A stretch of 64,000 nucleotides of DNA from an uncultured Actinomycetes bacterium (GCA_963719935.1 CAVRDY010000007.1:16335-80334); one strand, 5' to 3'; positions 2,055 to 55,798 are shown, numbered from the stretch's first letter. Program-made: numbers and translations. Notes: generated by a model from the sequence alone, not told the origin.

Positions 2055-2951
2055 ATGCAGACCCGACGGATCGACATAGGCCCGGTCGAGCTCGAGCTCG
2101 TCGAAGCGGGCGAGGGGGGCCGGCCCCTGCTCCTCCTCCACGGCTTCACGGGCACCAAGGAAGACTTCAGCGACTGGTTCGGCGCCCTGGCTGCCGAGGG
2201 CTGGCACGTGGTGGCCCCCGACCAACGTGGCCACGGCTCCAGCGCCAAGCCGGACACCGAGGCGGACTACAGCCTCGAGCAGTTCGCGTCCGACGCCCTG
2301 GCCCTGGCCGACCGCCTCGGCTTCGAGCGCTTCGCGGTGCTCGGCCACTCGATGGGGGGCATGCTCACCCAGCATCTGGTTCTGGCCGCGCCCCACCGGG
2401 TGACGGCCCTCGTGCTCATGGACACCCACCACGGGTCCCTCGACTCGGTCGACCCCCAGCTGGTCACCATGGGAATCGAGTTGGCCCGCGCCCAGGGGAT
2501 GGAGGTGGTCGCCGACGTGGTGGCCGCCATGGGCGAGGACGACCCGCTGGTGACCCCGGCCTACCGCGAGATGATCGAACGCCGACCCGAACGCAAGGTG
2601 CAGAGCGACGCCAACCTGCGTGCCGTGGCCCCCGCCATGTACGCCGCCATGTTGGCGGCCATCACCTCTGCGGCCACCGAAGACCGCCTGGCACACCTGG
2701 CCGGCCTCGACGTACCCACCCTGGTGATGGTGGGCGAGCAGGACGCCCCCTTCCTGGTGGCCAGCGAGCGGATGGCCGCCACCATCCCCGGAGCCCGGCT
2801 GGCGGTCATCCCCGGGGGTGGTCACAGCCCTCAACTCGAGGCACCCGATGCCTGGTGGGAGGCTTTGGCGGGATTCCTTGCAGCCGTGGCTGCCGAGTCC
2901 GGCGATGCCGGCGATGCAGGAGTCCCATCGGTCGCCGAGGCCGGCCGATGA
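2055..2951 (+). CDS. Alpha/beta-fold hydrolase
   Basis: ORF 1992..2951. Plausible start MQTRRIDIGPVELELVEAGEGGRPLLLLHGFTG (HG oxyanion motif) and nucleophile elbow GHSMGG. Confidence 0.85.
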   Translation: MQTRRIDIGPVELELVEAGEGGRPLLLLHGFTGTKEDFSDWFGALAAEGWHVVAPDQRGHGSSAKPDTEADYSLEQFASDALALADRLGFERFAVLGHSMGGMLTQHLVLAAPHRVTALVLMDTHHGSLDSVDPQLVTMGIELARAQGMEVVADVVAAMGEDDPLVTPAYREMIERRPERKVQSDANLRAVAPAMYAAMLAAITSAATEDRLAHLAGLDVPTLVMVGEQDAPFLVASERMAATIPGARLAVIPGGGHSPQLEAPDAWWEALAGFLAAVAAESGDAGDAGVPSVAEAGR

Positions 2952-4621
2952 CCGGGCCCGGGGAAGCCGCGGAACCCACACCGTCTCGGGCCACGGCGGC
3001 CAGCTGGCTGCCGCCTCCCTGACTCCCTTCGGCGTCGAGGAGATGTTCACCCTCTCGGGCGGCCACATCTTCCCCTTCTACGACGCGGCGGTGGCCGAAG
3101 GCCAAGGTGACGGACGCGTGCGAGTGATCGACATCCGCCACGAGCAGACGGCCACGTTCGCCGCCGAAGGCATCGCCAAGCTGACCCGCCGCCCCGGCGT
3201 GGCCGTGCTCACCGCAGGGCCCGGGAGTCACCAACGGCATCTCTGCGGTCACCACGGCGGCCTTCAACGGATCGCCCCTGGTGGTGCTGGGAGGCCGGGC
3301 CCCGCAGCGGCGATGGGGGTCGGCTCGCTCCAGGAGTTCGACCACGTCCCGGTGCTGGCACCCGATCACCAAGCACGCCGCCACGGTGACCAGCACCGAC
3401 GCCATCTGCGCCGACACCTACGAGGCGCTGCGCATTGCGGCTGAGCCCACACCGGGGGCCGGTGTTCCTCGACTTCCCCCTCGACGTGGTGTTCGGTCAC
3501 GGGACGGGCCAGGTGCCCACGGGGGCGCCCATCGTCGAGCGGGATCGATCCCGACCCCGACGAGGTGGCCCGTGCTGCCGCGCTGCTCGCCACCGCCACC
3601 GCGCCCGCTCTGATCGTCGGCAGCGACGTCTACTGGGCCGGCGCCTGGGAAGCACTGGCGGCGGCCGTCGAGCACCTGCGGGTGCCCACCTTCGTGAACG
3701 GACTGGGTCGGGGTTGCCTGCCCGCCGACCACGAGCTGGCCTTCTCCCGCACCCGGGGCATGCTGAAGACCGACGCCGACGTGGTTGTCGTGGTCGGCAC
3801 GCCCCTCGACTTCCGGCTCTCGTTCGGCTACTTCGGCGACGCCCAGGTGGTCCACGTCGTCGACCACCCCGACCTGCGGGCCACCCACGTGCGACCCGGC
3901 GGTCTCACCGGCGGGCGACCTGGAGCGCCGTGCTCACCTCGCTGGCCGAACTGGAGCGGGCCGCCGTGCCGACCACGAACCGTGGATCGGCCGCCTGCGC
4001 GACGCCGAGGCGGCGGCCCGGGCCGCCGACGAGGCCGCTGCTGGAGGCCGACAGCCGACCCGATCAAGCCCACACGGATCTACGGCGAGCTGCGCCGGGT
4101 GCTCGACGGCGACGCCGTTGTCGTGTGCGACGGCGGCGACTTCGTCTCCTACGCCGGCAAGTACATCGACTCGCAACGAGCCGGGCTGCTGGCTGGATCC
4201 GGGACCCTACGGCTGCCTCGGCACCGGCATGGGCTACGCCATCGCCGCCCGCGTCGCCCACCCCGACCGCCAGGTCGTGGCCGTGCTGGGCGACGGCGCC
4301 GCCGGCTTCTCGCTCATGGACGTCGACACCCTGGTCCGCCACGAGCTGCCGGTGGTCATGGTCGTGGGCAACAACGGCATCTGGGGTCTCGAGAAGCACC
4401 CGATGCAGATGCTCTACGGCTACGACGTGGCCGCCGACCTGCAACCCGGCTGCCGCTACGACCAGGTGGTCACGGCGCTGGGCGGTGCCGGCGAGGTCGT
4501 CACCACCGCCGACGACATCGGCCCCGCTCTCGACCGGGCCTTCGCCGCCGGGGTGCCCTACCTGGTGAACGTGCTCACCGACCCCGCTGACGCCTATCCC
4601 CGCTCGTCCAACCTGGCCTGA
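2948..4621 (+). pseudogene. Thiamine-pyrophosphate enzyme (acetolactate synthase large subunit / oxalyl-CoA decarboxylase-like) disrupted by many frameshifts
   Basis: Family-typical segments are scattered over all three + frames, in ORFs 2818.., 3281.., 3435.., 3565.. and 3785..: GGHIFPFYDAAV...IRHEQTATFAAEGIAKLTRRPGVAVLTAGPG / RAPQRRWG / GSLQEFDHVPVLAP / ITKHAATVTSTDAICADTYEALRIAAEP / RGPVFLDFPLDVVFG / PALIVGSDVYWAGAWEALAAAVEHLRVPTFVNGLGRGCLPADHELAF / [39 protein letters not shown] / [59 protein letters not shown]. Confidence 0.75.
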
Positions 4622-5178: not shown

Positions 5179-6570
5179 GTGATCCACGAGGACGTGCTCG
5201 AACGGGTACTCGGTGCCGCCCTGCGCACGGGGGGCGACTTCGCCGAGGTGTTCGCCGAGGACAAGCGCTCCTCCTCGGCCCTCCTCGACGACGGCCGGAT
5301 CGAAGAGCTCACCTCCGGTCGCGACCGAGGCGCAGGAATCCGTGTGGTGGTGGGCGAGACCACCGGGTTCGCCCACACCGCTGACCTGTCCGAAGCGGGT
5401 CTGCACCGTGCCGCGGAGGCCGCCGCGGCCGCGGCCCGGGGAGGTGGGGGCGGAACCCGCGTCGTCGCCCTCGAGAGGAGCGACGCTCCCAGACCCAACG
5501 AGGTCCTGCGCGACCCCGGCGAGGTCGCCAAGGCCACCAAGGTCGAGCTGTTGACCCGCGCCGACGCTTCGGCCCGGGGCGCGGGCGATGCCATCAGCCA
5601 GGTGTCGGCGCGCTACGCCGACAGCCGGCGCCGGATCCTGGTGGCCAACAGCGAGGGGGTCCTCACCGGCGACGAGCAGGTCCGTTCCCTGTTCTCGGTG
5701 AGTTGTGTGGCAACGGGGGACACCGGCATGCAGACCGGCCGCGAGACCGTGGGGCACACGGTGGGCTTCGAGCTCTTCGACCGCCATGATGTCGACGACC
5801 TGGCCGACCGGGCGGCGCAGCGGGCGCTGACCAAGCTGGGCGCCCGTCCCGCCCCCAGTGGTGAGATGCCGGTGGTGATCGCCGCGGGTGGGGGAGGCGT
5901 GCTCTTCCACGAGGCCTGCGGTCACGGGCTCGAAGCCGACCTGGTGGCCAAGGGGGCGTCGGTGTTCCGCGATCGGGTGGGCCAGCAGGTGGCATCCCCG
6001 CTGGTCACACTGGTCGACGACGGCACCATGGCCGAGGAGTGGGGGTGCTTCGCGGTCGACGACGAGGGCAACCCGGCCCAGCGCAACGTCCTGATCGCCG
6101 ACGGTGTGCTCACCGACTACCTGTGGGACCGACTGCGGGCCCGCAAGGCCGACCGGGCCTCCTCGGGCAACGGGCGGCGCCAGAGCTACCAGCACCTGCC
6201 GATGGTGCGAATGACCAACACCTATGTCACCAACGGCACCGAAGATCCCGAAGCCATCATCGCGGGCACCGACCGCGGCGTGTACGTGAGTCAGCTCGGA
6301 GGTGGACAGGTGAACACGGCCACCGGAGACTTCGTCTTCGGCATGACAGAGGCGTACCTGATCGAAGGCGGGCGGATCACCGCCCCCCTGCGGGAGGGAA
6401 ACCTGATAGGCAACGGGCCCGAGGTGCTGGCGTGCATCGATGCGGTGGGCAACGACTTCGCCATGGGCTCACCGGGCACGTGCGGCAAGGACGGTCAGGG
6501 GGTTCCCGTGGGTGACGGCGTACCGACCCTGCGGGTGACGCGCCTCACCGTGGGTGGGACAGCGGCATGA
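5179..6570 (+). CDS. tldD: Metalloprotease TldD
   Basis: 463-aa ORF with full-length TldD-like sequence (GDFAEVFAED...GAGIRVV...HEACGHGLEAD...). Its stop overlaps the pmbA start (ATGA). Confidence 0.9.
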   Translation: MIHEDVLERVLGAALRTGGDFAEVFAEDKRSSSALLDDGRIEELTSGRDRGAGIRVVVGETTGFAHTADLSEAGLHRAAEAAAAAARGGGGGTRVVALERSDAPRPNEVLRDPGEVAKATKVELLTRADASARGAGDAISQVSARYADSRRRILVANSEGVLTGDEQVRSLFSVSCVATGDTGMQTGRETVGHTVGFELFDRHDVDDLADRAAQRALTKLGARPAPSGEMPVVIAAGGGGVLFHEACGHGLEADLVAKGASVFRDRVGQQVASPLVTLVDDGTMAEEWGCFAVDDEGNPAQRNVLIADGVLTDYLWDRLRARKADRASSGNGRRQSYQHLPMVRMTNTYVTNGTEDPEAIIAGTDRGVYVSQLGGGQVNTATGDFVFGMTEAYLIEGGRITAPLREGNLIGNGPEVLACIDAVGNDFAMGSPGTCGKDGQGVPVGDGVPTLRVTRLTVGGTAA

Positions 6571-7919
6571 GCGTCGACGTCGAGAACCTGTTGGCCATCG
6601 GCGACCGCGTGGTGGCCATGGCTCGTGAGGACGAGCAGGTCGAAGTCGTGGTCGTCGAAGACCACGACACCGAGATCCGTGTCTACGAGGGTGAGATCGA
6701 GTCCTTCTCGGTGGCCGACTCGTCGGGGGTGGGGATCCGGGTCGTGCGCGACCACCGCCAGGGATTCGCCTACGCCGGCTCACTCGACGACGACGTGCTG
6801 GCCGACACGCTGGCCGACGCACGCGACAACGCCACCTTCGGCACCCCCGACGAGGCCCTGGGCCTCGCCGAGCCCGACGGGGTGGAACCCGCCTCCCTGG
6901 ATCTCTGGCACGAAGAGGTGCTCACGTTCCCGACCGAGGCCAAGATCGATCTGGCCCTGGCCCTCGAGCGGGCGACGATGGCCGCCGACTCCCGCATGTC
7001 GGGGATCGAGTCCGCTGAGTACGTCGACACGGCCGCGGCGGGGGCCATCGTCACCACCACCGGTGTCCGCACCGCATCGCGTGAGGTGGCCTGCTACCTG
7101 ATGGTGTGGGCCATGGCCACCGAAGGCGACGAGACCCAGACCGGTTTCGGTTGGTCGCTGGGCCGCGACCCGGCCCGCCTCGATCCCGAGGTCGCCGCCG
7201 CGGACACCGCAGAGCGCGCCACCCGGCTGCTGGGAAGCACCAAACCGGCCAGCGAGCGGCTCACCGTGGTGCTCGACCCTTGGGTCACCGCCCAGTTCCT
7301 GGGGATCATCGGGGCCACCCTTTCCGCCGAGGCGGTGTTGAAGGGCCGTTCCCTGTTCGCCGACCGGCTGGGCGAGCCCGTGGCCGCTCCCTTCTTCAGC
7401 CTCGTCGACGACCCCACCGACCCCGACGCGTTCACCGCCACCGAGACCGACGGAGAGGGTCTGGCCACTCGCCGCAACCTCTTGGTGTCCGACGGTGTTC
7501 TGGGCGGGTTCCTCCACAACGCCTACACGGCGCGCCGGATGGACACCCGGTCCACGGGCTCGGCCGTGCGGGGCTTCAAGAGCACCCCCGGCGTTGGTTG
7601 CCATGCCCTGGCCCCTTCTCCGGGCGCCCGGTCCCAGGAGGAGTTGGTGGCAGGAATCGACCACGGCCTGCTGGTTCAGGGGGTGTCGGGCCTGCACTCG
7701 GGAGTGAACCCGGTCTCGGGAGATTTCTCCACGGGGGCCGAAGGCCTACGCATCCGCGACGGCGCCCTGGCCGAACCGGTGCGCGAGTTCACCATCGCCT
7801 CCACGATCCAAAAGATGCTCCTCGACGTCGCCGAGGTGGGCTCCGACCTGATCCGCCTGCCCATGCGGGCCTCGGGGGCCAGCCTGGTGATCGCGGACGT
7901 CACCATGTCGGGCACGTGA
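6567..7919 (+). CDS. pmbA: Metalloprotease PmbA/TldE
   Basis: 450-aa ORF, translationally coupled to tldD, with PmbA/TldD-family sequence throughout. Confidence 0.9.
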   Translation: MSVDVENLLAIGDRVVAMAREDEQVEVVVVEDHDTEIRVYEGEIESFSVADSSGVGIRVVRDHRQGFAYAGSLDDDVLADTLADARDNATFGTPDEALGLAEPDGVEPASLDLWHEEVLTFPTEAKIDLALALERATMAADSRMSGIESAEYVDTAAAGAIVTTTGVRTASREVACYLMVWAMATEGDETQTGFGWSLGRDPARLDPEVAAADTAERATRLLGSTKPASERLTVVLDPWVTAQFLGIIGATLSAEAVLKGRSLFADRLGEPVAAPFFSLVDDPTDPDAFTATETDGEGLATRRNLLVSDGVLGGFLHNAYTARRMDTRSTGSAVRGFKSTPGVGCHALAPSPGARSQEELVAGIDHGLLVQGVSGLHSGVNPVSGDFSTGAEGLRIRDGALAEPVREFTIASTIQKMLLDVAEVGSDLIRLPMRASGASLVIADVTMSGT

Positions 7920-7968
7920 GCGTCCCCTGCGCTGCGTACGCGTAGTCGACTTCCACGCAGATCCGCCT

Positions 7969-8700
7969 TCAACCGGCCTGTCCGTGCAGGGCCAGCACAG
8001 CGGTACCCGACGCGAGGCCGGCGGCGAGCATCGGAACGTGTTGTTCGTTGGCGGCGACGGTGATGGCGTCGGTGTCCACCGCGACGACCACGGCCTCCTC
8101 GGTCACCGTCAGGACGGCACCGGTCCCATCGGTCGTGTGGATGTCGACGACATCGCCTACGCGCAGGGGCGGCACGGCAATGGCGACGGGCACGGCCACG
8201 GCGCGATGCCCCGCAGGGACGAGGGCGGGCGTGCCGTCCAGCCCGGCAGGTGCCACTCGGGCTGCGACGATCGGTTCACCGGCCATTACCGCCTGGGCCA
8301 CCACGCGTCCGACCGGATCCTCCACCAGCCCCAGGCCGGGTGGCGGCGGCCAGTCAACCGTGGCGAGGTCGGCGGGGCCGATACGGGTGCCGGGCACCAG
8401 GTCGTGGGTGGCCACCGTGGTGCGGACGGCCACGGCGTCTCCCGGTGAGGCGAGGGCGTCGAGCCAACCGGGAAGGACCAGTAGCGCCCACAGCGCCGAC
8501 AGGGCTGCGACACCACGGCGGTGGTGTCGCAGCCAGCGAACCGGACGGACGCGCCCGAGGCCCCGCCGCCGGGATCGCGCGGGGAGCCTTCTCGTGTGCG
8601 ACCGGCGGGACGTACGGGGTCGGGGCCACGGACCCCGGGCGTTGGTGGGCGTTGGTGGCGGCACTCGGTTCCCTCCGGGTCGGGATGCACGGGGTCGCAC
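7969..8700 (-). CDS. SAF-domain (CpaB/RcpC-like) protein with N-terminal Arg-rich region and one TM helix; start uncertain
   Basis: ORF 7969..8700. TM AALSALWALLVLPGWL is followed by the SAF-like segment VATHDLVPGTRIGPADL...VMAGEPIVAARV. Its synteny next to fmdB/galU/moeA is common in actinobacteria. Confidence 0.6.
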   Translation of the reverse strand: MRPRASRPGGNRVPPPTPTNARGPWPRPRTSRRSHTRRLPARSRRRGLGRVRPVRWLRHHRRGVAALSALWALLVLPGWLDALASPGDAVAVRTTVATHDLVPGTRIGPADLATVDWPPPPGLGLVEDPVGRVVAQAVMAGEPIVAARVAPAGLDGTPALVPAGHRAVAVPVAIAVPPLRVGDVVDIHTTDGTGAVLTVTEEAVVVAVDTDAITVAANEQHVPMLAAGLASGTAVLALHGQAG

Positions 8701-15883: not shown

Positions 15884-15957
15884 GGGGGTGTAGCTCAGCT
15901 GGCTAGAGCGCTTCGGTCGCATCGAAGAGGCCGTGGGTTCGAATCCCATCACCTCCA
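15884..15957 (+). tRNA. tRNA-Ala (anticodon CGC)
   Basis: Manual cloverleaf: acceptor GGGGGTG/CACCTCC with the G3:U70 Ala identity pair, D-arm GCTC..GAGC, anticodon stem CTTCG/CGAAG with loop GT-CGC-AT, T-arm GTGGG-TTCGAAT-CCCAT, discriminator A. CCA is not encoded. Confidence 0.9.
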
Positions 15958-16324
15958 CTGGTCGTTGTGGATTTCACAACGTTGCGCTGCCCAAAGGCGG
16001 GTTCGCCCCGGGGGCGATCAGGACCGGACGGGCCGCCCGCCTGGTTCCGCCGTCCGCGGCTCATCCGCGCGGTGGTCGATGACGTTGTGCGGAGGCGGAT
16101 ACCTTCCGGCGGGCAGACTGGGTGCTCCAGGGGATCCTTCCGCTCTGGCTACGGCCCAACGCCTGAGCCTGCTGCTTGGTCCCCTCGACCACATGGGAGT
16201 CGAGCTGGTCCGAGACATTCGGCGCCCGCCACCGTTTCCGGGCTTGAGATCCAAGGCGCCTAGACAGGGGCGCCGGGTCTGGCGGACGAGATCGCGGCCG
16301 GGCGCCCAGCGCAAACCGCGGGAC

Positions 16325-41029: not shown

Positions 41030-41623
41030 TTGGTTCGCCCCTGGCTCGCACCGGGCGCGTGCCATGCTCTGGTCGTGGATGCGGGAGCAGGCAAGGTGGT
41101 GCGCGTGGGTGTCACCGGGCACCGTGCGCTGGCCGCACAGGATGCGCTGGCCCGGGCCGTCGACGCCGTTCTCGACGACGTCCTGGCCGGCGTGGGCGGG
41201 GGAGAAGACCCCGACCGATGTCCGACGCTGGAAGTCGTGTCGTCGCTGGCCGAGGGAGCCGACCGCCTCGTCGTCGACCGGGTGCTGGTGCACACCGGCA
41301 GCCGCCTGGTGGTGGTGCTGCCCCTCGACCCCGACGACTACGAGACCGACTTCGCCGACCCGGCCTCGGTCGGTGCCTTCCGGGCGATGCTCGAGCGGGC
41401 GGCCGAGGTGGAGATCACCGGACCCGACCCCGGCGGCAGCCGGGAGTCGGCCTACGAGCGGGCCGGGCAGGCCGTCGTCGAACGCTGCGACGTGCTGCTC
41501 GGCCTCTGGGACGGCACCTCGTCGCGAGGCAGGGGCGGCACGGCCGACATCATCGACCACGCCCGGGAGCGAGGTCGTGCCGTGGTCATCGTCCCCGTCA
41601 CCCGAGCTGAGCCCCAGCCATGA
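41030..41623 (+). CDS. Stand-alone SLOG/DprA/YpsA-like Rossmannoid protein (predicted nucleotide-derivative binding); the true start is probably GTG at 41096
   Basis: Sequence VRVGVTGHR...SSLAEGADRLVVDRVL...RLVVVLPLDPDDYETDF...YERAGQAVVERCDVLLGLWDG...GGTADIIDHARERGRAVVIVPV. This mirrors the SLOG/DprA layout: N-terminal G-rich strand, [S/G]xAxGxD, a parallel strand, then D-hhhhh-W/Y-D-G...GGT...A...G+xVhhhP. The SD-like gggagcagg precedes 41096. Confidence 0.55.
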   Translation: MVRPWLAPGACHALVVDAGAGKVVRVGVTGHRALAAQDALARAVDAVLDDVLAGVGGGEDPDRCPTLEVVSSLAEGADRLVVDRVLVHTGSRLVVVLPLDPDDYETDFADPASVGAFRAMLERAAEVEITGPDPGGSRESAYERAGQAVVERCDVLLGLWDGTSSRGRGGTADIIDHARERGRAVVIVPVTRAEPQP

Positions 41624-41659: not shown

Positions 41660-43369
41660 ATGAGGTGGATCGACTCGTCGCGGCGCCGCTGGTACCTGCT
41701 GGCCGCCTGCTGGGTCGGCCTCCTGGTGATCGGCATGGGTGGCTTCATCGAGCAGTCCCACGAAGGTGACCTGGGTCGCGGCTTCCTGGACAACCTGTAC
41801 CTGACACTCCAGCTCGCCACCCTCGACTACGACGGCGGCTCCACCGCCCTCAACTGGCGGCTTGAGATCGCCCGGTTCGTGGCCCCCGTCATGGCTGCGG
41901 GCACCGTGCTGCAGACGGCGTCGGTGGTCTTCCGTGACCAGTTCCTGCGCTGGCGCATCGGCTTCTCCAAAGGGCACACGGTTGTGTGTGGCCTCGGTCC
42001 CGCCGGCACCCGCCTGGCCATCGCCCTGGCCCGCGAGGGGCACCCGGTCGTGGGTGTCGACGCCGACCCGGCCGCCAGTGGCCTGGCCGCGCTACGTGAC
42101 GCCGACGTCCCCGCCCTGGCCGGGGATCCCACCGATGCCGAAGTGCTCCTTGCCGCACGGGTCGACCGGGCGGCGCAGGTGGTGGCCTTCGACCGCGACG
42201 ACGCCGCGAATGTGGCGGTCACGGCCGCAGTTCGTGCGGTGCCCCGCCACGGCAACGACACCGCTCTGCGGTGCTCGGTGCACCTGACCGACGCCGAGCT
42301 CACCGAACTGCTGCGCGGGGCCGATCTGGGTGGCAGCAGCGACGTGCGCGTCGAGTTCTTCAACCTGCACGAGCGGGGGGCCCGGGCGTTGCTGGGCGAG
42401 GTGGAGGCCTTCGGGGACGGGTCCCGGCCCCCGCACCTGGTGGTCGTGGGGATGGGCCAACTGGGCCGCAGTCTGGTGGTGGCCGCCGCCCAGCAGTGGG
42501 CCGAGGTGGGCCAAGGGCCCCTGGTCGTATCGCTGGTCGACCGGGACGCCGCCGGACGGTGGAACGCGCTGCTCCTCCAGCACCCGGCCCTGGAGGCGGC
42601 CGCCGACGCCCGCTGCCTCGCCTTCGATCTGGAGGCCCCCACCGCCGACATGGTCCAGCGCTTCACGACCGTGCTGCTCGACGAGGCCCCCACCGCAGTG
42701 GCCGTCGTGCTGGCCGACGAGTCCCTGGCCCTGTCCACCTCCCTGTTCGTGCACAAGACCCTGGGCCGCCCGTCGGTGCCGGTGGTGGTGCGCACCAGCG
42801 CCGATGCCGGGCTGGCGGGAATCGTCACCTCGACCGGCACCCCCGATCCGCACCAGCCGGCTCGATTCCCGGGTCTGGTGCTGTTCCCGTTCCTCGACCG
42901 CACCTGCTCGCCGGCCATCATCGAGGGCGGTGTGCGTGAGCAGTTGGCCCGCGCCATCCACGAGGACCACACCGCACGGGCAGGCCACGACGGGGGTCTG
43001 CACCGTCCCTGGGACCAGCTCGACGACGCCGAGCGTGAGTCGAGTCGCCGGGCCGCCGACGGAATCGTCGACACCCTGGCAGACGTCGGTTTCGAGCTCG
43101 TACCGCTGCGACGCTGGGGAGCGGCCGAGGTTCCCTTCACCGACGCCGAGGTGGAGCGACTGGCCCGGGTCGAGCACGAACGTTGGCGAGCCGAACGCCA
43201 GGCCCAGGGTTGGCGCCACGGGCCCTCCCGCGACGACGACGCCAAGCTCAACCCGCTGCTGGTCGCCTGGGTCGATGCTCCAGCAGAAGCCCAGGCCGCC
43301 AACCGGGACGCCGTGCGGACCCGCCCCGGCATGCTGGCGAGAGCAGGCTTCGAGCTGGCCCGCAGCTGA
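41660..43369 (+). CDS. 2-TM P-loop cation-channel-like protein fused to two TrkA-N/RCK Rossmann domains and a C-terminal RyR domain
   Basis: 569 aa. TM1 is WYLLAACWVGLLVIGMGGFI. Pore-helix/filter-like segment FLDNLYLTLQLATLDYDGG (compare T-V-G-Y-G-D). TM2 is LEIARFVAPVMAAGTVLQTASVVF. RCK1 is HTVVCGLGPAGTRLAIALAREGHPVVGVDAD and RCK2 is HLVVVGMGQLGRSLV. C-terminus LARAIHEDHTARA...WDQLDDAERESSRRAADGIVDTL...LARVEHERWRAERQAQGW...NPLLVAWVDAPAEAQAANRDAV resembles RyR (PF02026-type) repeats. Confidence 0.7.
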   Translation: MRWIDSSRRRWYLLAACWVGLLVIGMGGFIEQSHEGDLGRGFLDNLYLTLQLATLDYDGGSTALNWRLEIARFVAPVMAAGTVLQTASVVFRDQFLRWRIGFSKGHTVVCGLGPAGTRLAIALAREGHPVVGVDADPAASGLAALRDADVPALAGDPTDAEVLLAARVDRAAQVVAFDRDDAANVAVTAAVRAVPRHGNDTALRCSVHLTDAELTELLRGADLGGSSDVRVEFFNLHERGARALLGEVEAFGDGSRPPHLVVVGMGQLGRSLVVAAAQQWAEVGQGPLVVSLVDRDAAGRWNALLLQHPALEAAADARCLAFDLEAPTADMVQRFTTVLLDEAPTAVAVVLADESLALSTSLFVHKTLGRPSVPVVVRTSADAGLAGIVTSTGTPDPHQPARFPGLVLFPFLDRTCSPAIIEGGVREQLARAIHEDHTARAGHDGGLHRPWDQLDDAERESSRRAADGIVDTLADVGFELVPLRRWGAAEVPFTDAEVERLARVEHERWRAERQAQGWRHGPSRDDDAKLNPLLVAWVDAPAEAQAANRDAVRTRPGMLARAGFELARS

Positions 43370-43392: not shown

Positions 43393-46300
43393 CTAGTTGC
43401 GCGACTGGAGGTCGGCGATCATCTGGTCGAGCTGGGCCACCATGGCCTGTAGTTGGGGGCCGTAGCCGGCCGCGGTCCGGCGGGCCTGGTGCAACGCGTC
43501 GAGAGCCTCGGGCACGCGGCCCAACAGGCCCAGCAGCTCCCCACGGTTGGCGGTGGCGAACAGCACCCCCTGGGCGTTGCCGCCGGCCTGGGCCAGGCCC
43601 AACTGCTCCTCGACGCAGGCCAACGCCTCGGCGAGGTCACCCTGGTAGCGCAAGACGATGGCCTGGTTGCCCACGCAGGCCGCCAAGCCGACCTGGTCGC
43701 CGAGTCGCCGGCACAAGACGTCCTGCTCGTCGAGCAAGGCAGCGGCCTGGGTCAGCAACGCGTGGTCGACGTTGGTGGCGTCGCCGGCCGCCCCGGCGGG
43801 CTGTGCCCGGTTGATGCACAGCAACGCCTGCTCGCCCAGCGCCCGCTGGAGGGCGGCGTCGTCACCCAGAGCCCGGTAGGCGACCACCAGCGACGACCAC
43901 AACGACTCGGCATTGGCGGTGTCACCGACCTGATAGGCGAGGCCGATGCCCTGTTCGCCCCACTGCTTGGCTGACGCCGCAACCCCCAGCCGGGCAGCCG
44001 CGTCGGCAGCTCTGGCGTAGTCCGCGACAGCGGCCGCCAGGTCCTGGTGCTGGTGGTGGACCTGAGCCCGGTTGGCCAGTATCGGCAGCAGCGTCGAGTA
44101 GGCCCGCAGCTCTGTCAGGACCGGTTCGGCCTGGCCGTAGCGTTCGAGGGCGTCCGCCCAGCGCTGCTCGGCGAGGTCACAGGTGCCCAGGTTGACGGTG
44201 GCCACGGCCACGGCGTGGCGATCACCGGTTGCCTGGGCCACCCGCAGCTCCTCTTCGTGGGTCGCCCGGCACCCCGCCAGGTCGCCCTGTTCACGGCGGG
44301 CCGTGCCGATGAGACCCAGGGCCACGGCGGTCTGGGTGGCCGCGCCGGCGTTGCGGGCGGTCAGCTCGGCCTCACGGGCCCGGCGTTCCACCTCGGGCCA
44401 GTCGCCGCTCATCGATGCGGCCATGGCACCGGCGGACAGAACCCTTGCCAGCATTCCCGAATCGGCCATCTTGCGAGCCAGGGACTCGGCTTCGGCCGCA
44501 GTGGCCAGAGCCGCGTCGAGATGAGCGAGTTGGCTGTGCATGACCACCTGGTTGAGGAGCGCCTCGAGCAGTCCCCGGCGGTCGCCCATCTCACGGCAGG
44601 TCTCTGCGTGGGCCACGGTCAGCGCCAGCGCCTCGCTGATGTCACCCCGATCAGCCAGGATCGATGCCCGCCCTGCACGCGCCCGGGACACGCCGAGCGG
44701 GTCGCCGGCATCCAGGCACAGCTGCTCCTGCTCGTCGATGCGGGCCAGTGCCTCGTCGAAGCGAGCCTGGAGGACCAGCAGCTGGGCCTGGTTGCCCAAG
44801 TTGGCTTGGAGGTCTGCGGTGTCACCCCGTTGGCGGCAAAGGGCCTCTTCCTCGGCGAACAGCGCAGATGCCTCCTGGGTGCGACCGGCGTCGCGGCACA
44901 CCATGGCCAGGTTGCCCATGGCAGCCCCCAGCAGGGCCTGGTCTTCCGCGGCCCGGCCGCGCTCGACGGCCTCGCGCAGCACCGGGTCGGCCCCGGCCAG
45001 GTCACCCTGGGACCACAGGGCCGCACCGAGGTTCACCAGGGCGGCCCGGAGCCTGGAGTCACCGCCGGGTGCGTCGTCCCGCCCGGCGGAGGACCGGCGG
45101 GCCTGGTCCACCAGGAACCTGTTGAGCACCAGCGCCTCGGCGGGGTGGCCGGCATCGGTGAGCAGGCGCGCCACGCCCCACACGAGGTGGCGGCGCCCCG
45201 CGATCCCCGTCACCCCCTCTGACCCTTCGGCGGCTGCGGGTGGCGGCCCGGTCTCGCTGGCGGCCGGGTCGTCGAGAACGGGCCGGTAGACGTCGGTCAT
45301 GGAGTGGCCTGCGGACTCGGCGTGCACCCAGAGCCGGCGCAGGTCACCTACCGAACGCACGTAGGCCACTTCGGTGAACGCCAGGTCGGCCAGGGTGTGG
45401 GCCAGCCCGGCGGTGTCTCCTGCTCCCAGCTGTTGCCATCCCAGCTCGTCGACGACCCGGTCACCCAGCGGCCGTCCGGCGAAGTAGGCGGCCAGGCGTG
45501 CGTGGGCGGCTCGTTGCGCCGCGTCGTCGGACAGGTAGCGGTCGGTCACGGCCCGGCGGAGGTGTTCGGTGCCGAACCCCACCAGCCCGGCCCGTGTCAC
45601 CAGGCCCTGCTCAGCTGCCAGGAACAGGGGTGACCAGACGGCCCGGGGAGGGGGGTGGCGTCTCCGGGACCGAGCAGGTCGAGCAGCTCGGCTTCGGCCA
45701 GGCCCCGCCGGGCGGCCCACAGCAGTGAGAAGGCGTCGCGGGTGAGCCCGGGACGGTCACGTTCGAAGTCGCGCTCGTAGCGGGTGAGCACCAACTCGAA
45801 CAGGTCGTCGACCGTGTCGGCAGCCAGCAGGTGGTCGATCAGCTCACCAAGGGTGAAGTGGTCGCCGTGCTGGCGCAGCTCGTCCAGCACGGTCCGCAGG
45901 TACAGCGGGTTACCTGTGCGGGGGGCCTGGGTCAGGCGCAGCAGGTGGTGCTCGTCGAGACCCTTCGAGAACCGGGCGAGGAAGGTGGTGATCAACATCC
46001 GGCGCTCGTCCTCGTCGAGGGGGGGCACCTCCAGGCTCGGCCAACCCCGGCCGAGCGCAGCGGCCAGGGGGCGCCCGCCCGCCGAGGTGAGCACCACCCG
46101 CACTCCGCCCGCTGGAACCGCAGGGAGCCAGCCCAGGTCAGGGGCACCATCCTCGTCCACGAGGCGGTCCACGCCGTCGAGCACCAGCACGGTGCGCCGG
46201 GCGCCGGCGCCGGCCTGTAGCAGGGCGTGGGCCAGCGCTGCCCGCAGGCCGGGGGCATCGGCGGGCAGGTCGTCGGGACCAGTACCAGACCAGTCGTCGC

Positions 46301-47270
46301 TACCGTTACCGGGCTGCTCGTCGTTGCCGGTGTGGCTGTGGGCCCGCGCCAGCTCGCCGATCAGGCGGCCGGCCAGCTCCCGCCAGTCCGCGGACGCTGC
46401 GGTGGCACCCACGTAGTGCTCGATCACGACCTCGTCGGGCCGGGTGGCGCGCCGTGATGCCGCCCAGTGGGCCACCAGTGCCGAGGCCCCGGCGCCCGAT
46501 TCGCCGGTGACGACCAGCGGAGGTCCGGCCCCGTCGGCTTGTGCCTCGAGGCGGGCGGCCAGTGCGGGCCGGGCCACGAAGCCGGCGAAGCGGCTGGCGG
46601 CGAAGGCGGCGTGCTCGGCGGCGGCCCGGTCGAGGGGGTCGGGCAGGGAATGCTCGGGGTAGAGGCGGTCGACGAGGGCACTGAGGTCGGCCAGCACCTG
46701 GTCGCCCAGAGCCGCAGGATCGGGGTAGTCGCGCACTGGGTGCCCAGAGGTGCGGATGCGGTCCTTCAGCGCCTCGAGCTTCGCCACTCCCTCAGGGGTG
46801 TCCTCGAGGAAGAGGCCCTGCTCGTCGCCGGGCAGTCCCTCGACCCAGGCCGGGTCACGCAGATAGAAGAAGGCGTGGCCGGCGGCCTCGGGGTCGTTGA
46901 TGACGCCGTGGAGGATCTCCATCTCGGTGACCGAACGCCCGCGGGCGTCGGCCAGCCAGCCCAGCTCGGCGGCCAGGTCGGCGGGGATCTCGTCGGGGAC
47001 CCAGCCATAGCGTTGGCCCAGCAGGCCGATGAAGTACGGGCGGCTCCGTTCTATCTCTGCCAGGCAGATGGGCAGCACCGCCCCCTCGGCCTTCTGCTCG
47101 TCGGTGACCCCCCAGCGCAGGTCGACCTCGCTCCAGGTGACGCCCCGCTCCTCGCAGCGTCGGCGGACCTGGGGGAACACCCGCTTTACCAGCTCCTCGC
47201 GCTCGAGCTGCATGTCGCGGAACGTGGAGGAGATGAAGACCCGGATCACCCGGGGATCGGTGTCGCTCAC
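43393..47270 (-). pseudogene. DUF4062-NACHT-TPR STAND NTPase, split by a single frameshift (ORFs 45597..47468 and 43393..45720)
   Basis: Likely GTG start at 47270. DUF4062 hallmark IRVFISSTFRDMQLEREELVKRVFPQVRRRCEERGV. P-loop region PLVVTGESGAGASALV. Walker B RTVLVLDGVDRL. The winged-helix region continues across the frame change (..LLGPGDATPLP | RAVWSPLFLAAEQGLVTRAGLVGFGTEHLRRAV). It is followed by about 700 aa of TPR repeats. Confidence 0.8.
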
Positions 47271-47316
47271 CGCCAGATCCTCGCACCCCCGTCCGCCCCC
47301 TCGGTCAGAGAACGAG

Positions 47317-47541
47317 TCAATACCACCACATGTCGTGGCGCTTGCGTTCGCGCCGTACGTCTTTTGCGCCGAACTCGGTGGGTAGCTCCATCCCATCGGA
47401 GAGCCGGCGCAGCCGGTAGCCCGTGTCGGCGGTTGCGAGTACCTCGAAGCCGCGGGCCCAGGAGTCATCGAAGCGCTTGCGCACCTCCACCCGTGTGCCC
47501 GCCGGGAGGTCGAGTGCCAGCCGTGTCGCGACCTCGGTCAT
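47317..47541 (-). CDS. Small hypothetical protein (74 aa) between rnhB and the STAND gene
   Basis: The internal ATG at 47541 is preceded by ggggaaggggg. MTEVATRLALDLPAGTRVEVRKRFDDSWARGFEVL...KRHDMWWY. No family recognised. Confidence 0.45.
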   Translation of the reverse strand: MTEVATRLALDLPAGTRVEVRKRFDDSWARGFEVLATADTGYRLRRLSDGMELPTEFGAKDVRRERKRHDMWWY

Positions 47542-47706
47542 CTTCTGGCCCCCTTCCCCTGGGTAGTCGCCGTGATCCGCCTTGGTGCCGCCGATGACCA
47601 ATTGTCGACGGCACAGATGCCGAGGGCAAGGGGAGTGCCCGCAATTCTTCGTTCGCATCCGCTTGCAGGCGTGGATCTACAGCGCACAGCCCGAACTGGA
47701 GGCGGG

Positions 47707-48528: not shown

Positions 48529-48978
48529 TTGCGGGTCCCACCAGTTCGGGCCAGGTCACATCGACGTGCTCCCCAGCGCCCCTCCCGGGGGCTGGTGGCC
48601 GCCGCCCGGATCGTGGCCCGCACCGGCGCCGCCTGGTCGGTGGGCTCTGAGCGGTCATGGTTCTGTGTGGGCTCCCGCCGCAGCGCGCTGAGCGTGGGCT
48701 CGGCGCTGTCGGCAGGTTCGGTGCTGTCGGCGGCCTCGGTCCTGTCGGTGGGATCCCTGGGATCTGTGGCGTCGGCCGGATCCATCCTCTCCATCGCCTC
48801 CACCGGTTCGATCCTTTCGATCGGAGCCTCGGGCGGAGTGCTCCGGGTGGGAGGCCGCCGCCCCGGTCCATCCGGTGCCTCCGAAGGTGGGATGCAGGCC
48901 GACGAGGTGGTACGCAGGATCTCGGGTCTCGTCACGGTGGCCGCCATGGTGGGTGCCGCGCACCGCTCTGCTGCCTGA
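48529..48978 (+). CDS. Hypothetical protein with Ser/Leu/Gly hexad repeats (S-x-L-S-x-G/A); strand and frame uncertain
   Basis: The ORF reads ...SALSVGSALSAGSVLSAASVLSVGSLGSVASAGSILSIASTGSILSIGASGG... followed by the hydrophobic C-terminus ISGLVTVAAMVGAA. The competing minus-strand ORF 48243..48947 has similar codon-position GC. Confidence 0.3.
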   Translation: MRVPPVRARSHRRAPQRPSRGLVAAARIVARTGAAWSVGSERSWFCVGSRRSALSVGSALSAGSVLSAASVLSVGSLGSVASAGSILSIASTGSILSIGASGGVLRVGGRRPGPSGASEGGMQADEVVRRISGLVTVAAMVGAAHRSAA

Positions 48979-49042
48979 CCAACCGCTCACGCAGACGCTC
49001 CATCCTGTGTCCGGCTGTGGCGCTCGGGCGCGGACCTGGGCG

Positions 49043-51433
49043 ATGGCCTACGCTGGCGCCGTGTACTGGCGGCGGACGGGTCAGTTCCAGGCTTTGCGAG
49101 TTGTGCGGGTCCTCGTGGTGTTGGGGGCGGTGCTGACCGCGAGTGTGATGCCGGCCGCGTCTGTTCCGGGCGGTCACGTGACGGCGGGCGCTGAAGAACC
49201 TGGGGTGCGCTACCTGGATCACGTCTTCGCCGAGGTCGACAGCCAGTTCGACGTCGTCTACGGCGAGTCAATGGACGACGGGATCCTCACCGATCTGAAG
49301 ATGGACGTCTACCAGCCCCGCGGGGACACCCTCGAGCGGCGTCCCCTGCTCATCTGGATCCACGGCGGCACCTTCGTCACCGGCGACAAGAGCAGCCACC
49401 GAGACGAGGCCGCCGACTTCGCTCGCCGAGGCTACGTGAGCGCCACCATCAACTACCGCCTGGCCGAGGGAGCCCACTGGGAGGGGACCTCCCTCAGCGA
49501 CGTGCTCTCGGACTGGGACTTCATCGCGGCTGTGTATGAGGCGTTCAAGGATGCAGACCAGGCCCTTCAGTACTTCCACGACCACGCTGACGAGTGGGGC
49601 ATCGACCCCGACAGGATGTCGGTGGCGGGCTATTCGGCGGGGGCGGTCACGGCCATCAACACAGGTGTGATGCACGAGCGCCAGAAGGGGAACGGGGTGG
49701 CCCCCACCGACACCTCCGCGGTGACCGGCGCAGTGGTGTCCTTCGCCGGTCTGACCACCATGCTGTTCCCCGAACGGGGCGAGCCTGACATCCTCATGCT
49801 CCACGGCACCAAGGACAAGACCGTCTACTACGACGAGGCCGTGAACTTCTGCAACGGTGCCAACAGTCGCGGCGTGTACTGCGAGCTGCACTCCTTCGTC
49901 GGGGGAGCGCACGGCATCATCTCGGACTGGAACATCCTGCGCGACGAGACCGCCCAGTTCCTCTACGACCACGACATCGATCCGAGTCCCTGGATCGAGC
50001 GGGTCGCGCCCAACACCGGTCCGATCTCCGGTGGCTACCGGATCGAGGTGATAGGTCGGAACTTCACCGGCCTCGACACGGTCACCATCAACGGAGTGGC
50101 CACCGACTTCACCGTGGTGGACGACTACCACTTGTGGGCCACGGTGCCACCCATCGCCAACCCGTGGCTGGTCCACGTCCGGGTCACGAACCATCGGGGA
50201 AGCTCGCCGACCGGTTCCTGGACCTACTTCGGCTACCGGGCACCGACCCCGGGCCAGGGATCCCTGTCCGGGCAGGTCCGTGACCACGCTGGTGACCCCC
50301 TGCCGGGGGCCACGGTCCACATCGCCCGCAGCGACGGGACCGAAGAGGCGACCGCCACCACCGCGGCCGACGGCTCATGGGTGCTGCACCACCTGCCAGC
50401 GGTAGCCGCGCCCGATGGTTACCGGGTCGGCGTGGAGGCACCCGCCGGCCGGCCCGACGCCCCCGAGTGGTATCTGGACGCGCCCAGCTCCGATGCGGCC
50501 ACGCTGGTGCCCGTGCCCGATGGCGGGATCAGCTCGGGAATCGACGTCCAACTCGATGCCGGCACTGCGGCGGGCACGGTCGTGGGAGCGGAGGGGGTGC
50601 CCATCGAGGGTGCCGCGGTCAGCATCGTGGACGGCGAAGCGACCGTGGGTACCGCCACGAGCGCCGCCGACGGAACCTGGGAGCTGCTCGTGGCCCCAGG
50701 GTCCTACACCCTGGAGGTGACCCCGCCCGGTCACGTCGAAGAGCTGCACCGTGATCTGGCCCCCGGCACGACGGCGGGCGACGCCGTGGTCGTGACCGAC
50801 GGTGCCACCACGGTGGTCCCGGTGGTGGCCCAGCCCGTGTGCGCGCCGGTGCCGGTCTTCATCGACGTGGGTGCACCTGGAGCCGAGGCCAGCTGCGGTG
50901 AGATCGAGTGGATGGCCTCAGCAGGCATCACCACCGGTTTCGCGGACGGCACGTTCCGGCCCGAACAGGGTCTCACCCGTCAGGCGCTGATGGCCTTCTT
51001 GCACCGGCTCGCAGGTACACCCGAACCACCTGCCGATGCCCCGACCTTCACCGACGTCCAGGCCAACCATCCCTTCGCCGGGGCCATCGCCTGGGCGGCT
51101 TCGATGGGCATCACCACAGGTTTCGCCGACGGGACCTTCCGCCCCGCCACCCCTGTCACCCGCCAGGCATTCGCCGCCTTCATGCACCGCCTGGCCGGCA
51201 CCCCCGCCGGACCCCACGGCCCGCCCCTGCCCGCCGACCTGGCGCCCACCCACCCGTTCTTCGCCGAGCTGTCCTGGCTGAGCGACGGACGCTACGAGGC
51301 CCTCACCTGGGCGCCGACCTGGCCTGATCTCATGGGCGACGGGACGCTGTCGCCGTCGTCTGCGGTCGTGCGTCGCACCGTTGCGGCCGCCCTCTACCGG
51401 CTGGTGGCGGAGGGTCTCGTCGCCCCGGTCTGA
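49043..51433 (+). CDS. Secreted multidomain esterase: alpha/beta hydrolase + IPT/TIG + carboxypeptidase-regulatory-like repeats + C-terminal SLH domains
   Basis: In-frame ATG at 49043 with the hydrophobic signal VRVLVVLGAVLTASVMPAAS. Esterase motifs are LIWIHGGTF and GYSAGA. IPT/TIG: VAPNTGPISGGYRIEVIGRNFTG. Cna/CarboxypepD_reg-like: GSLSGQVRDHAGDPLPGATV. SLH-like: FIDV...IEWMASAGITTGFADGTFRP...LTRQALMAFLHRL and FTDV...IAWAASMGITTGFADGTFRP...VTRQAFAAFMHRL. Confidence 0.8.
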   Translation: MAYAGAVYWRRTGQFQALRVVRVLVVLGAVLTASVMPAASVPGGHVTAGAEEPGVRYLDHVFAEVDSQFDVVYGESMDDGILTDLKMDVYQPRGDTLERRPLLIWIHGGTFVTGDKSSHRDEAADFARRGYVSATINYRLAEGAHWEGTSLSDVLSDWDFIAAVYEAFKDADQALQYFHDHADEWGIDPDRMSVAGYSAGAVTAINTGVMHERQKGNGVAPTDTSAVTGAVVSFAGLTTMLFPERGEPDILMLHGTKDKTVYYDEAVNFCNGANSRGVYCELHSFVGGAHGIISDWNILRDETAQFLYDHDIDPSPWIERVAPNTGPISGGYRIEVIGRNFTGLDTVTINGVATDFTVVDDYHLWATVPPIANPWLVHVRVTNHRGSSPTGSWTYFGYRAPTPGQGSLSGQVRDHAGDPLPGATVHIARSDGTEEATATTAADGSWVLHHLPAVAAPDGYRVGVEAPAGRPDAPEWYLDAPSSDAATLVPVPDGGISSGIDVQLDAGTAAGTVVGAEGVPIEGAAVSIVDGEATVGTATSAADGTWELLVAPGSYTLEVTPPGHVEELHRDLAPGTTAGDAVVVTDGATTVVPVVAQPVCAPVPVFIDVGAPGAEASCGEIEWMASAGITTGFADGTFRPEQGLTRQALMAFLHRLAGTPEPPADAPTFTDVQANHPFAGAIAWAASMGITTGFADGTFRPATPVTRQAFAAFMHRLAGTPAGPHGPPLPADLAPTHPFFAELSWLSDGRYEALTWAPTWPDLMGDGTLSPSSAVVRRTVAAALYRLVAEGLVAPV

Positions 51434-54491: not shown

Positions 54492-55766
54492 TCAGCGCTG
54501 GGTGCCCACCGCCAGCTCGCGGAAGGGTGAGGTGGTGTTGATTCCCGGGTCCTTGGGGAGGCCCAGCACACGCTCGCCCACGATGTTGCGCAGCACCTCG
54601 TCGGTGCCGCCGGCGACGCGCATGCCGGGGACGCCCAGGAGCATCCCGTTCCAGGCGTAGGTGCCCCACTCGCCGGTGTCGGCGGTGATGCGGGGCCCCA
54701 GGACCCGGGCCACGAACTCGGTGACCCGGCACAGGTTGTCGGTCAGCGCGAGCTTGGCGATCGACATCTCGGGGCCGGGGAGCTGGCCTGCCTTGATCTT
54801 GTCCATGGCCCGCTGGTTGGTGAACTTGGCCACCTGGAAGTGGACGTACAGGTCGGCCAGCTCGTCACGCACCGAGCGGGTCGTCGCGACAGCCGAAGTG
54901 GTCGACCAACAGGGTGAGCCGCTCGATGAGCCCCAGGCCGCCCCCGCCACCTCCGGCCGCGCCCGCACCGATCGAGGCTCGCTCGTTCATGAGCGTGGTG
55001 AGCGCCACACCCCAGCCCTGGTTCACGTCACCGAGGCGATGGTGTCGGGGACCCGCACCTCGTCGAAGAACACCTCGTTGAAGGCGGCGCCACCGGTCAT
55101 CTGGCGCAGGGGTCGCACCTCCACCCCGGGTGCGTGCATGTCCACGACGAAACCGGTGAGACCCTTGTGCTTGGGTTGTTCGACGTCGGTGCGGCAGATG
55201 ATCTCGCCGATGTCGGAGTAGTGGGCGCCCGAGGTCCACACCTTCTGGCCGGTGAGGAGCCACTCGTCGCCGTCGCGCTCGGCGCGGGTCTGGAGGCTGG
55301 CCAGGTCCGAGCCGGCACCCGGCTCGCTGAAGAGCTGGCAGCCCACGATGTCACCCCGGTACAGCTTGGGGAGCAGGTCGGCGGCCACCTCGGGCCGAGC
55401 GTGGTCCTTGATGGTGGGGGCCACCATGCCCAAGCCGATCCCGAAGAAGGTCTGACTGGGCACCTCGTAGCGGGACTCGAGGCTGGAATAGGCACGCTCG
55501 AAGGTGCCGGGCAGCTCACGGCCCCCCAGCTGGGCGGGGCCGGTGATCCAGCCCAGCCCGGCGTCGAAGCGCTTGGCACGCCACGCTTTGGCCTTGGCCA
55601 GCTCTTCCAGCTCGACGGTGCGGTCGACCTCCTCGAACAGTGAGACTTCGTCGGAGCCTTGGCCCCATTCAGCCTGGGTGTCGTTGGTCTCGACGCGACG
55701 TGTGGCGTTGGCGTCGAGGAAGGAAGTGACCTCGGAGCGGAACTCCTCGAGGGTGATCTCAGCCAT
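54492..55766 (-). pseudogene. Acyl-CoA dehydrogenase interrupted by two frameshifts (about 55044-55052 and about 54873-54880)
   Basis: It comes in three consecutive pieces. ORF 55023..55814 reads MAEITLEEF...CQLFSEPGAGSDLASLQTRA...FNEVFFDEVRVPD. ORF 54865..55263 reads ..LGDVNQGWGVALTTLMNERASIGA.. ORF 54492..54968 reads ..VRDELADLYVHFQV...RVAGGTDEVLRNIVGERVLGLP. Confidence 0.8.
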
Positions 55767-55798
55767 GGCGGGCCTCCGGTTAACAGTGTTCGCTCTTC

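Follow-up and report, generated by a model that had tools for sequence, protein, structure and literature searches.

Is a sensor gene that is split by a frameshift, and whose P-loop lacks its lysine, a gene in decay, or has it come to work in another way? The question is raised by a 64-kb stretch of DNA (70.5% G+C) from an uncultured Actinomycetes bacterium (GCA_963719935.1 CAVRDY010000007.1:16335-80334), here called the window, in which two overlapping minus-strand open reading frames (ORFs) together encode a protein with a DUF4062 (NIR) domain, a STAND NTPase module and a TPR array. An earlier note on this DNA had offered a decaying gene, a phase-variable gene, a non-hydrolysing sensor variant and a sequencing error as possible readings. 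Our best overall explanation, whose probability we put at roughly 0.7, is that the locus holds an NIR-STAND-TPR sensor which shares the loss of the lysine with its whole clade, that the frameshift is probably an artefact, and that the protein may take part in signalling.

One gene interrupted by one missing base

The ORFs at 45597..47468 and 43393..45720 (both minus strand) overlap in frames one base apart and are parts of one NLR-like sensor gene, which occupies 43393..47270 on the minus strand and comprises about 1,292 codons interrupted by a single 1-nt deletion. Its likely start is the GTG at 47270, with GAGGA ahead of the start codon, and the translation from there (MSDTDPRVIRVF...) agrees with the N-termini of homologues. 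Addition of one base gave a 1,292-aa protein free of further stops, and the two ORFs had rightly been taken for one gene. The best 120 homologues are all single ORFs of about 1,166-1,414 aa, nearly all of which span 97-100% of the restored sequence; identity to it is 50-69% for full-length homologues of about 1,250 aa encoded in a single ORF. GC3 (G+C content at third codon positions) was tried as a gene filter and dropped, as antisense frames also score high in sequence of 70.5% G+C.

A predicted NADase head, a STAND module and a TPR array

Pfam profiles and homologues establish the domain content of the gene, and the layout first proposed, DUF4062 followed by a STAND-type NTPase and TPR repeats, agrees with matches of 50.3 bits to DUF4062, 38.5 bits to AAA_16 and 67.8 bits to TPR_12. 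The head (residues 8-205; 46656..47249, minus strand) is assigned to the NIR/DUF4062 TIR-like NADase domains by its match to PF13271 (cutoff 24.7 bits; residues 10-119), by alignment of the family profile with the NIR domain of human TEP1 (PDB 11gz_A; E=2.2e-36, positions 8-205) and by an AlphaFold2 model with a predicted local distance difference test (pLDDT) score of about 90. The NADase activity of such domains has been established only in 2026 preprints, for bacterial defence proteins and human TEP1 (10.64898/2026.05.01.722283; 10.64898/2026.09.04.749371). Three preprints of that year describe DUF4062 ("NIR") as a TIR-like NADase that converts NAD+ into ADP-ribose plus nicotinamide, needs a catalytic glutamate, and acts in Swarozyc, Evangelion, Vulcan, Vesta, an Avs2 protein and human TEP1. 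The catalytic glutamates given for NIR domains are E1008 of TEP1, E108 of PsAvs2 and E97 of KpSwz, that of TEP1 being reported in bioRxiv 10.64898/2026.09.04.749371.

In the window protein the candidate catalytic glutamates lie in E116-M-E118 of the motif SVTEMEIL (46917..46925, minus strand). This motif aligns with SVTEMEV of TEP1, and either E116 or E118 could be the equivalent of E1008. We compared the protein with an aligned set of 267 sequences, of which 142 have the P-loop lysine (K+) and 125 do not (K-less). E118 is kept in all 267 relatives (125/125 K-less, 142/142 K+), and E116 in 125/125 K-less and 135/142 K+ sequences. We infer from these comparisons that the head is a TIR-like NADase with intact catalytic glutamates, which would be enzymatically active.

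Residues 236-540 (45651..46565, minus strand) make up the STAND NTPase core and a helical/winged-helix module. The AAA_16 match is above cutoff, the AlphaFold2 model of residues 1-540 has a pLDDT of 88.1, and the Foldseek matches are to generic STAND/AAA+ folds (ORC/Cdc6, Avs3, MalT, NRC2, ZAR1 and CED-4). As first described, the P-loop reads GESGAGAS (46482..46505, minus strand) and lacks the lysine, and the Walker B motif VLVLDGVDRL (46161..46190, minus strand) is kept. In the model, GESGAGAS stands between a strand (252-255) and a helix (262-276), which is the Walker A position. It departs from the GxxxxGK[ST] pattern of canonical STAND NTPases in having Ala262 in the place of Lys and retains the subsequent Ser/Thr; Walker B, with D365, has the expected hhhhD form. 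The NACHT label initially given to this module could not be confirmed, as the window protein has no PF05729 (NACHT) match at E<=0.01 and resembles STAND/AAA+ folds in general. Precomputed or weak NACHT matches exist for some homologues, and a DUF4062-NACHT-WD40 relative scores 37.8 bits for PF05729 (cutoff 26.7). Between the Walker A and Walker B regions, residues 313-331 (about 46278-46334, minus strand) form a private low-complexity insertion (HTGNDEQPGNGSDDWSGTG), which almost all relatives lack and which is modelled with low confidence.

The C-terminal part of the protein, from about residue 690 to 1292 (43396..45200, minus strand), is a TPR array of about 600-700 aa and the presumed ligand sensor. 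It matches TPR_12, TPR_1, TPR_2 and TPR_MalT, as well as the TPRs of LGN/Pins and kinesin light chain, and is unusually conserved for an arms-race sensor. A search of NCBIfam gave only TPR matches far below cutoff.

The lysine was probably lost once, in a large clade

The alignment of orthologues that had been suggested as a check on the P-loop lysine found it in 0 of the 120 best homologues and missing from 125 of the 267 aligned sequences. With one genome scanned per species, 339 relatives came to light, and an exhaustive search returned 3,966 representative clusters at E<=1e-30. Relatives from Chloroflexota, Acidobacteriota, Planctomycetota and other phyla read GESGSGKSALL...LDALNQLEDRDG, and the K-less forms all come from records titled Actinomycetota. 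In a neighbour-joining tree the 125 K-less sequences form a single clade, with no lysine-bearing sequence inside it, nested among the GESGSGKSALL relatives; Fitch parsimony requires one change from a K root.

Within the K-less clade the relaxed columns are K262, A264-A267, E306, G399 and P455. Kept are G259 (124/125), Ser/Thr263 (119/125), D365 (119/125, compared with 142/142 in K+ relatives), R302 and R408, and conservation of the NIR and helical/winged-helix modules equals or exceeds that in K+ relatives. Because relaxation is limited to the P-loop and a few columns, and the NADase glutamates, Ser/Thr263 and D365 are kept, GESGAGAS does not look like decay. On the alignment and tree, the loss of the lysine is best read as ancient and selectively maintained in one monophyletic branch of Actinomycetota records. 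The pattern is what would be expected of a module that has lost hydrolysis, and perhaps contact with the gamma-phosphate, yet is still needed. Such a module would most likely serve, without hydrolysis, as a scaffold for oligomerisation or switching. Nucleotide binding may persist, since the glycine-rich loop, the Ser/Thr after the lost lysine and the Walker B aspartate are retained. The suggestion of a non-hydrolysing sensor variant therefore suits the P-loop, the loss being clade-wide and ancient.

A large conserved clade that keeps its NADase but not the Walker A lysine offers a natural experiment for asking if ATP hydrolysis is needed by NLR-type switches. No mention of a K-less NIR-STAND clade was found in a limited literature search. 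One metagenome-assembled genome (SRR22302370_binner13_Refined_2) carries at least six K+ DUF4062-STAND paralogues (L053, L058, L059, L061, L070 and L082), in contrast to the single-copy, syntenic K-less genes.

Position and origin of the frameshift

The missing base had been placed in a C6 run (G6 on the plus strand) at 45649-45654. That run lies at 45650..45655 (minus strand), and although exactly one base is indeed missing, the run adjoins the lesion and is not the best site for it. Insertion of a base into the C6 run gave ...DATPPPRAVW..., while insertion into the adjacent C4 run (G4 on the plus strand; 45645..45648, minus strand) gave ...DATPLPRAVW.... We placed the missing base in the C4 run because homologues read PLP[R/H/Q]AVWSPL at this site. 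Against CTC CCC CAC GCC in the closest relative, the window shows CTC CCC -GG GCC, and a Viterbi path based on codon usage, which is independent of homologues, switches frame at 45644/45645. The best-supported lesion is a 1-nt deletion that reduced a C5 run to C4 (or G4 to G3), beside the C6 run and not inside it.

At this site all of the 120 best homologues are unbroken. Upstream of the shift 167 of 168 family-conserved residues are kept; downstream, 151 of 160 residues that are at least 90% conserved in the family are retained (94.4%), compared with a mean of 96.3% and a 5th percentile of 92.7% among homologues. The Viterbi path found continuous coding potential on either side. Two metabolic genes of the window hold at least 12 further frame breaks. 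A thiamine pyrophosphate (TPP) enzyme gene resembling acetolactate synthase (2944-4617, plus strand) can be read only if at least 10 frame switches are made, and two compensating breaks about 160 nt apart, near 55030-55041 and 54872-54880, interrupt an acyl-CoA dehydrogenase gene (54496-55772, minus strand). When the frames were followed, full TPP_enzyme_N/_M/_C and complete Acyl-CoA_dh_M/_1 Pfam domains were recovered; the TPP enzyme gene could be a badly polished stretch or a heavily frameshifted pseudogene. Two long contigs from ENA, of 238 kb and 207 kb, carry the same cluster of SLOG, TrkA-RyR and STAND genes described below (L084, 8001-14077; L087, 8001-13902). In each of them the STAND gene is called in three fragments, and the TrkA-RyR gene is called in two fragments in L084 and three in L087, which suggests that indel errors are frequent in such high-GC genes.

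Because homologues are intact, no decay follows the shift and other genes of the window are frame-broken, the frameshift is most likely an assembly indel or a very recent mutation. An assembly error private to the window sequence is the probable explanation, so that of the readings first offered the sequencing error accounts best for the frameshift, a conclusion to which the fragmented orthologues on the long contigs contribute; the frameshift would then have little biological weight. A decaying gene is contradicted by the intact conservation downstream. A fresh pseudogene, inactivated by a real mutation perhaps because an NADase sensor was costly or unneeded, would give the same sequence picture, and this tells against the artefact, as does the uneven spread of frame breaks, with at least 10 in one 1.7-kb gene and 3 in the remaining ~62 kb, a clustering at odds with uniform sequencing error. 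The deletion is also present in the deposited sequence, the two other frame-broken genes could mean that the genome is accumulating pseudogenes, and fragments of the STAND protein are absent from database proteins while its SLOG neighbour is present (P0269), which fits a pseudogene call by the annotator. An exact-pattern scan of JGI metagenomes over the frameshift site gave no match, a protein search with a 181-aa segment spanning it returned nothing above 73% identity, and a look-up of the window's SLOG protein led only to a Logan contig of 1.7 kb, which stops short of the site. Because no independent copy of the gene was found, a very recent mutation keeps some probability. We nevertheless consider it unlikely: the gene has a single lesion in its 3.9 kb, its conserved residues past the shift are as well kept as those of intact homologues, and its coding potential continues without a break before and after. 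Comparable long-contig assemblies split the same genes into pieces, which looks technical rather than biological.

Regulated switching at the homopolymers is far less credible. Slipped-strand phase variation, or programmed -1 ribosomal or transcriptional slippage at C CCC G, could restore ...PLPRAVW...; a -1 slip of tRNA-Pro on CTC CCC GGG would give the conserved PLPRAVW exactly, and the C6 and C4 runs lie side by side. The runs are short (4-6 nt), however, and a canonical X XXY YYZ heptamer is missing. In relatives the segment is encoded in a single frame with varied codons (CTG CCG CAC, GTC CCG CAC and others), and 0/120 homologues need a frameshift. Because no slippery site is conserved in relatives, we regard programmed frameshifting and phase variation as ruled out for practical purposes, and the phase-variable gene first suggested falls with them, the run at the lesion being only 4-5 nt long.

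Conserved neighbours: a TrkA_N-RyR membrane protein and a SLOG-fold protein

Convergent with the STAND gene, across a 23-bp spacer, lies a gene for a 569-aa membrane protein (41660..43369, plus strand) with two transmembrane (TM) segments, a segment resembling a pore loop, two RCK (TrkA_N) Rossmann domains and, at its C-terminus, a RyR domain of the R12 type. Pfam scores are 61 bits for TrkA_N and 44.9 bits for RyR, and PDB matches are to the repeats of RyR1-3 and to the RCK channel GsuK. The HxxW ligand motif of the RyR domain is conserved. The pore-loop-like segment (LYLTLQLATLDYDGG) is not a K+ filter (TLDYDG, compared with TVGYGD). At the His of 'K-x-H-P', partners of K-less STAND proteins have Asn; among partners of K+ proteins, three actinobacterial ones (L030, L037, L038) have His and the others Asn or Thr.

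Upstream of this gene is one for a 175-aa SLOG-fold protein (41096..41623, plus strand; AlphaFold2 pLDDT 95), for which no Pfam family was found even at E<=10. The top Foldseek matches are YpsA (2nx2; E=5e-7, TM-score 0.71), DprA, ShosA and the SLOG domain of ThsA with 3' cyclic ADP-ribose (cADPR). The identity of the protein came from this fold search; a sequence-only PDB search had returned a weak DprA match (E=0.06) and a spurious one to GAPDH. Its motifs are GVTGHR, SSLAEGADR and WDG..RGRGGTAE, and none of its at least 620 homologues is annotated.

The neighbourhood is conserved. Where the downstream flank measures 4 kb or more (32 K-less and 21 K+ loci), the STAND gene has the TrkA_N-RyR gene beside it at 24/32 K-less and 9/21 K+ loci, and at most of these the SLOG gene is there too. 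The STAND/TrkA-RyR pairing is convergent in Acidobacteriota (L045, L063) and co-directional in Chloroflexota (L032, L039) and Phycisphaerales (L065). A reciprocal scan with the SLOG profile found co-directional sets of RyR, SLOG and DUF4062-STAND genes, in that order, in metagenome contigs (L113, 2188-8766; L154, 849-7916; also L138, L152 and L155). The first gene of these sets encodes 900-1000 aa ending in tandem RyR repeats, and the third gene of L113 is by Pfam DUF4062-NACHT-HTH_NWD1-WD40, a bacterial protein like TEP1/NWD1. In these sets the three domain families are combined in another way. Members of this SLOG family are also fused to two-TM SLATT_1/DUF4231 effector domains beside TIR_2-WD40 or TIR_2-PQQ-propeller proteins (L135, 4159-10548; L133, 8953-12895), and in L081 (~6300-8100) a K+ DUF4062-STAND gene has a SLOG-TM fusion upstream of it. 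No mention of an association of DUF4062 with SLOG and RCK-RyR proteins was found in the literature that was searched to a limited extent.

At two Propionicimonas loci (L051, 6873-7901; L064, 5523-6458), a protein resembling ADP-ribosylglycohydrolases is encoded just upstream of a K-less STAND gene. The resemblance comes from the motifs GDALG, GNGSLMR and GGNDTDT; only these 2 loci have it, and the RyR and SLOG neighbours are absent from both.

A possible NAD-derived signalling pathway

We infer a Thoeris-like, NAD-derived signalling module because SLOG and RyR neighbours recur and because putative co-directional operons of RyR, SLOG and DUF4062-STAND genes occur in other phyla. RyR domains bind or cleave cADPR isomers (2'/3'cADPR; PMC13232231), and SLOG domains sense cADPR in Thoeris (10.64898/2025.12.03.692087; PMC9503650). 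As in Thoeris, a gene for a TIR-like producer lies next to genes for SLOG-fold and RyR-domain proteins; producer and effector genes are convergent in the window and in most Actinomycetota, and co-directional in the three Chloroflexota and Phycisphaerales loci and the five metagenome sets named above. In the proposed mechanism, the TPR array would bind a ligand and bring about oligomerisation, which the STAND module would carry out without ATP hydrolysis. Oligomerisation would activate the NIR NADase and NAD+ would be cleaved to products of the ADP-ribose type, and these products, or the fall in NAD+, might then be read by the adjacent SLOG protein and RCK-RyR membrane protein. The coupling of the NADase to these two neighbours is conjectural. 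Stated in full, the K-less NIR-STAND-TPR protein would be the signal generator of an undescribed three-part pathway in which a YpsA-like SLOG protein, and an RCK-gated channel-like membrane protein through its RyR domain, respond to an ADP-ribose-derived product, with a change in ion flux as the outcome. We advance this pathway tentatively.

Several observations weigh against it. Six of the 32 K-less loci with enough flank, a Propionibacteriaceae group, have neither neighbour, and many SLOG-family loci lack RyR and DUF4062 genes. The STAND gene is not co-transcribed with the SLOG/TrkA-RyR pair, because, in the window as at most actinobacterial loci, the two are convergent. The NIR systems published so far deplete NAD+, with signalling not reported, and no defence genes lie nearby in the window. 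The protein could instead be an ordinary Avs-type antiphage protein that stands alone and kills by NAD+ depletion, the SLOG and TrkA_N-RyR genes being mere vertically inherited syntenic neighbours in Actinomycetota. NIR-STAND-TPR is the layout of PsAvs2, which works alone through NAD+ depletion, and the convergent arrangement with its short spacer and the K-less subgroup without neighbours would suit such a protein. We think this rather unlikely, as the pairing recurs outside Actinomycetota in differing gene orders, including the co-directional sets on metagenome contigs, and the same SLOG family is fused to SLATT beside TIR_2 sensors. Moreover, no Avs model of PADLOC matches, and even the TPR region shows unusual conservation for an arms-race sensor. 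NIR relatives are defensive, but the K-less clade is chromosomally stable, unusually conserved and outside a defence island, and its role may lie in immunity or in other signalling.

If the signalling pathway is real, it would be a bacterial counterpart of cADPR/RyR signalling, with RyR, SLOG and TEP1-type NADases in a single cellular system. Because of the recurrent linkage to SLOG and RyR, both binders of cADPR-type molecules, some NIR enzymes may signal and not merely deplete NAD+, and the linkage offers a bacterial test context for the long-debated connection between cADPR and RyR.

Wider surroundings and defence scans

The flanks of the locus are ordinary: RNase HII, an esterase with SLH domains, an SDR protein, acyl-CoA dehydrogenases and a two-component system. 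The esterase gene (48875-51433, plus strand) encodes a large secreted protein (BD-FAE/COesterase) with TIG, CarboxypepD_reg and three SLH cell-wall anchoring domains, and lies two genes upstream of the STAND gene, past a small ORF (47317-47658) and RNase HII. A tRNA-Ala (CGC) at 15884-15958 (plus strand) is the sole Rfam/ARAGORN match in the window.

PADLOC found no Avs model in the full protein and only a generic TPR model, nothing in the N-terminal 540 aa, and no matches in five neighbours. Of the profile and PADLOC scans that the earlier note had proposed, those for DUF4062 and TPR were positive, that for Avs was negative, and that for NACHT gave no match in the window protein but did in some relatives. 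The family label "Avs-like" could not be upheld, given the lack of a PADLOC Avs model and the metabolic and housekeeping neighbours in place of a defence island.

Comparison with known systems

Plant and animal NLRs with degenerate or dispensable P-loops, for example the sensor NLRs of paired NLRs, have been reviewed (PMC3478704). Like them, the window protein belongs to the STAND immune-type receptors kept under selection without a canonical Walker A lysine; here, however, a large prokaryotic clade is defined by the loss, and its N-terminal effector is enzymatic. No paired helper paralogue was found in the 64-kb window.

The membrane protein beside the STAND gene resembles the RCK-gated channels GsuK and MthK, its RCK domains bearing GxGxxG motifs like those of GsuK, but lacks a K+ selectivity filter. 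GsuK is regulated by NAD+/ADP. With the phage RyR proteins RyDEP it shares an R12-type RyR repeat with HxxW; unlike in RyDEP, the repeat is fused to a membrane RCK protein and the catalytic Asp is not conserved.

Human TEP1, NWD1, NWD2 and NPHP3 have in common with the window protein the NIR motifs IRxFISSTFRDM, DLRWGVT, GxLGxRYG and SVTEME, and in both the NIR domain precedes a STAND NTPase. The human proteins have a canonical NACHT module and WD40 or other repeats, and TEP1 adds a TROVE domain, whereas the window protein has TPR repeats, a P-loop without Lys and no scoring PF05729 match. PsAvs2 and other NIR-STAND-repeat defence proteins (bioRxiv 10.64898/2026.09.04.749371) likewise combine an NIR NADase with its Glu, a STAND module and C-terminal TPR-type repeats in one polypeptide. 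The window's clade differs from them in lacking the Walker A lysine throughout, in matching no PADLOC Avs model and in lying outside a defence island; its family is 50-69% identical over the full length across Acidimicrobiia and has recurrent SLOG and RCK-RyR neighbours.

Thoeris also places a TIR-like NAD+-cleaving enzyme beside a SLOG-fold protein and a membrane protein with nucleotide-binding domains, and the SLOG family of the window is fused at other loci to SLATT beside TIR_2 sensors. In contrast to Thoeris, the producer here is a DUF4062 domain within a STAND-TPR sensor, convergent in Actinomycetota; the partner is an RCK-RyR protein, a type that the literature examined does not describe among Thoeris effectors, and NIR has no known signal molecule. 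In NIR sequence the window protein is closest to the TEP1/NWD1 type, in layout to NIR-Avs2, and in its predicted logic to Thoeris.

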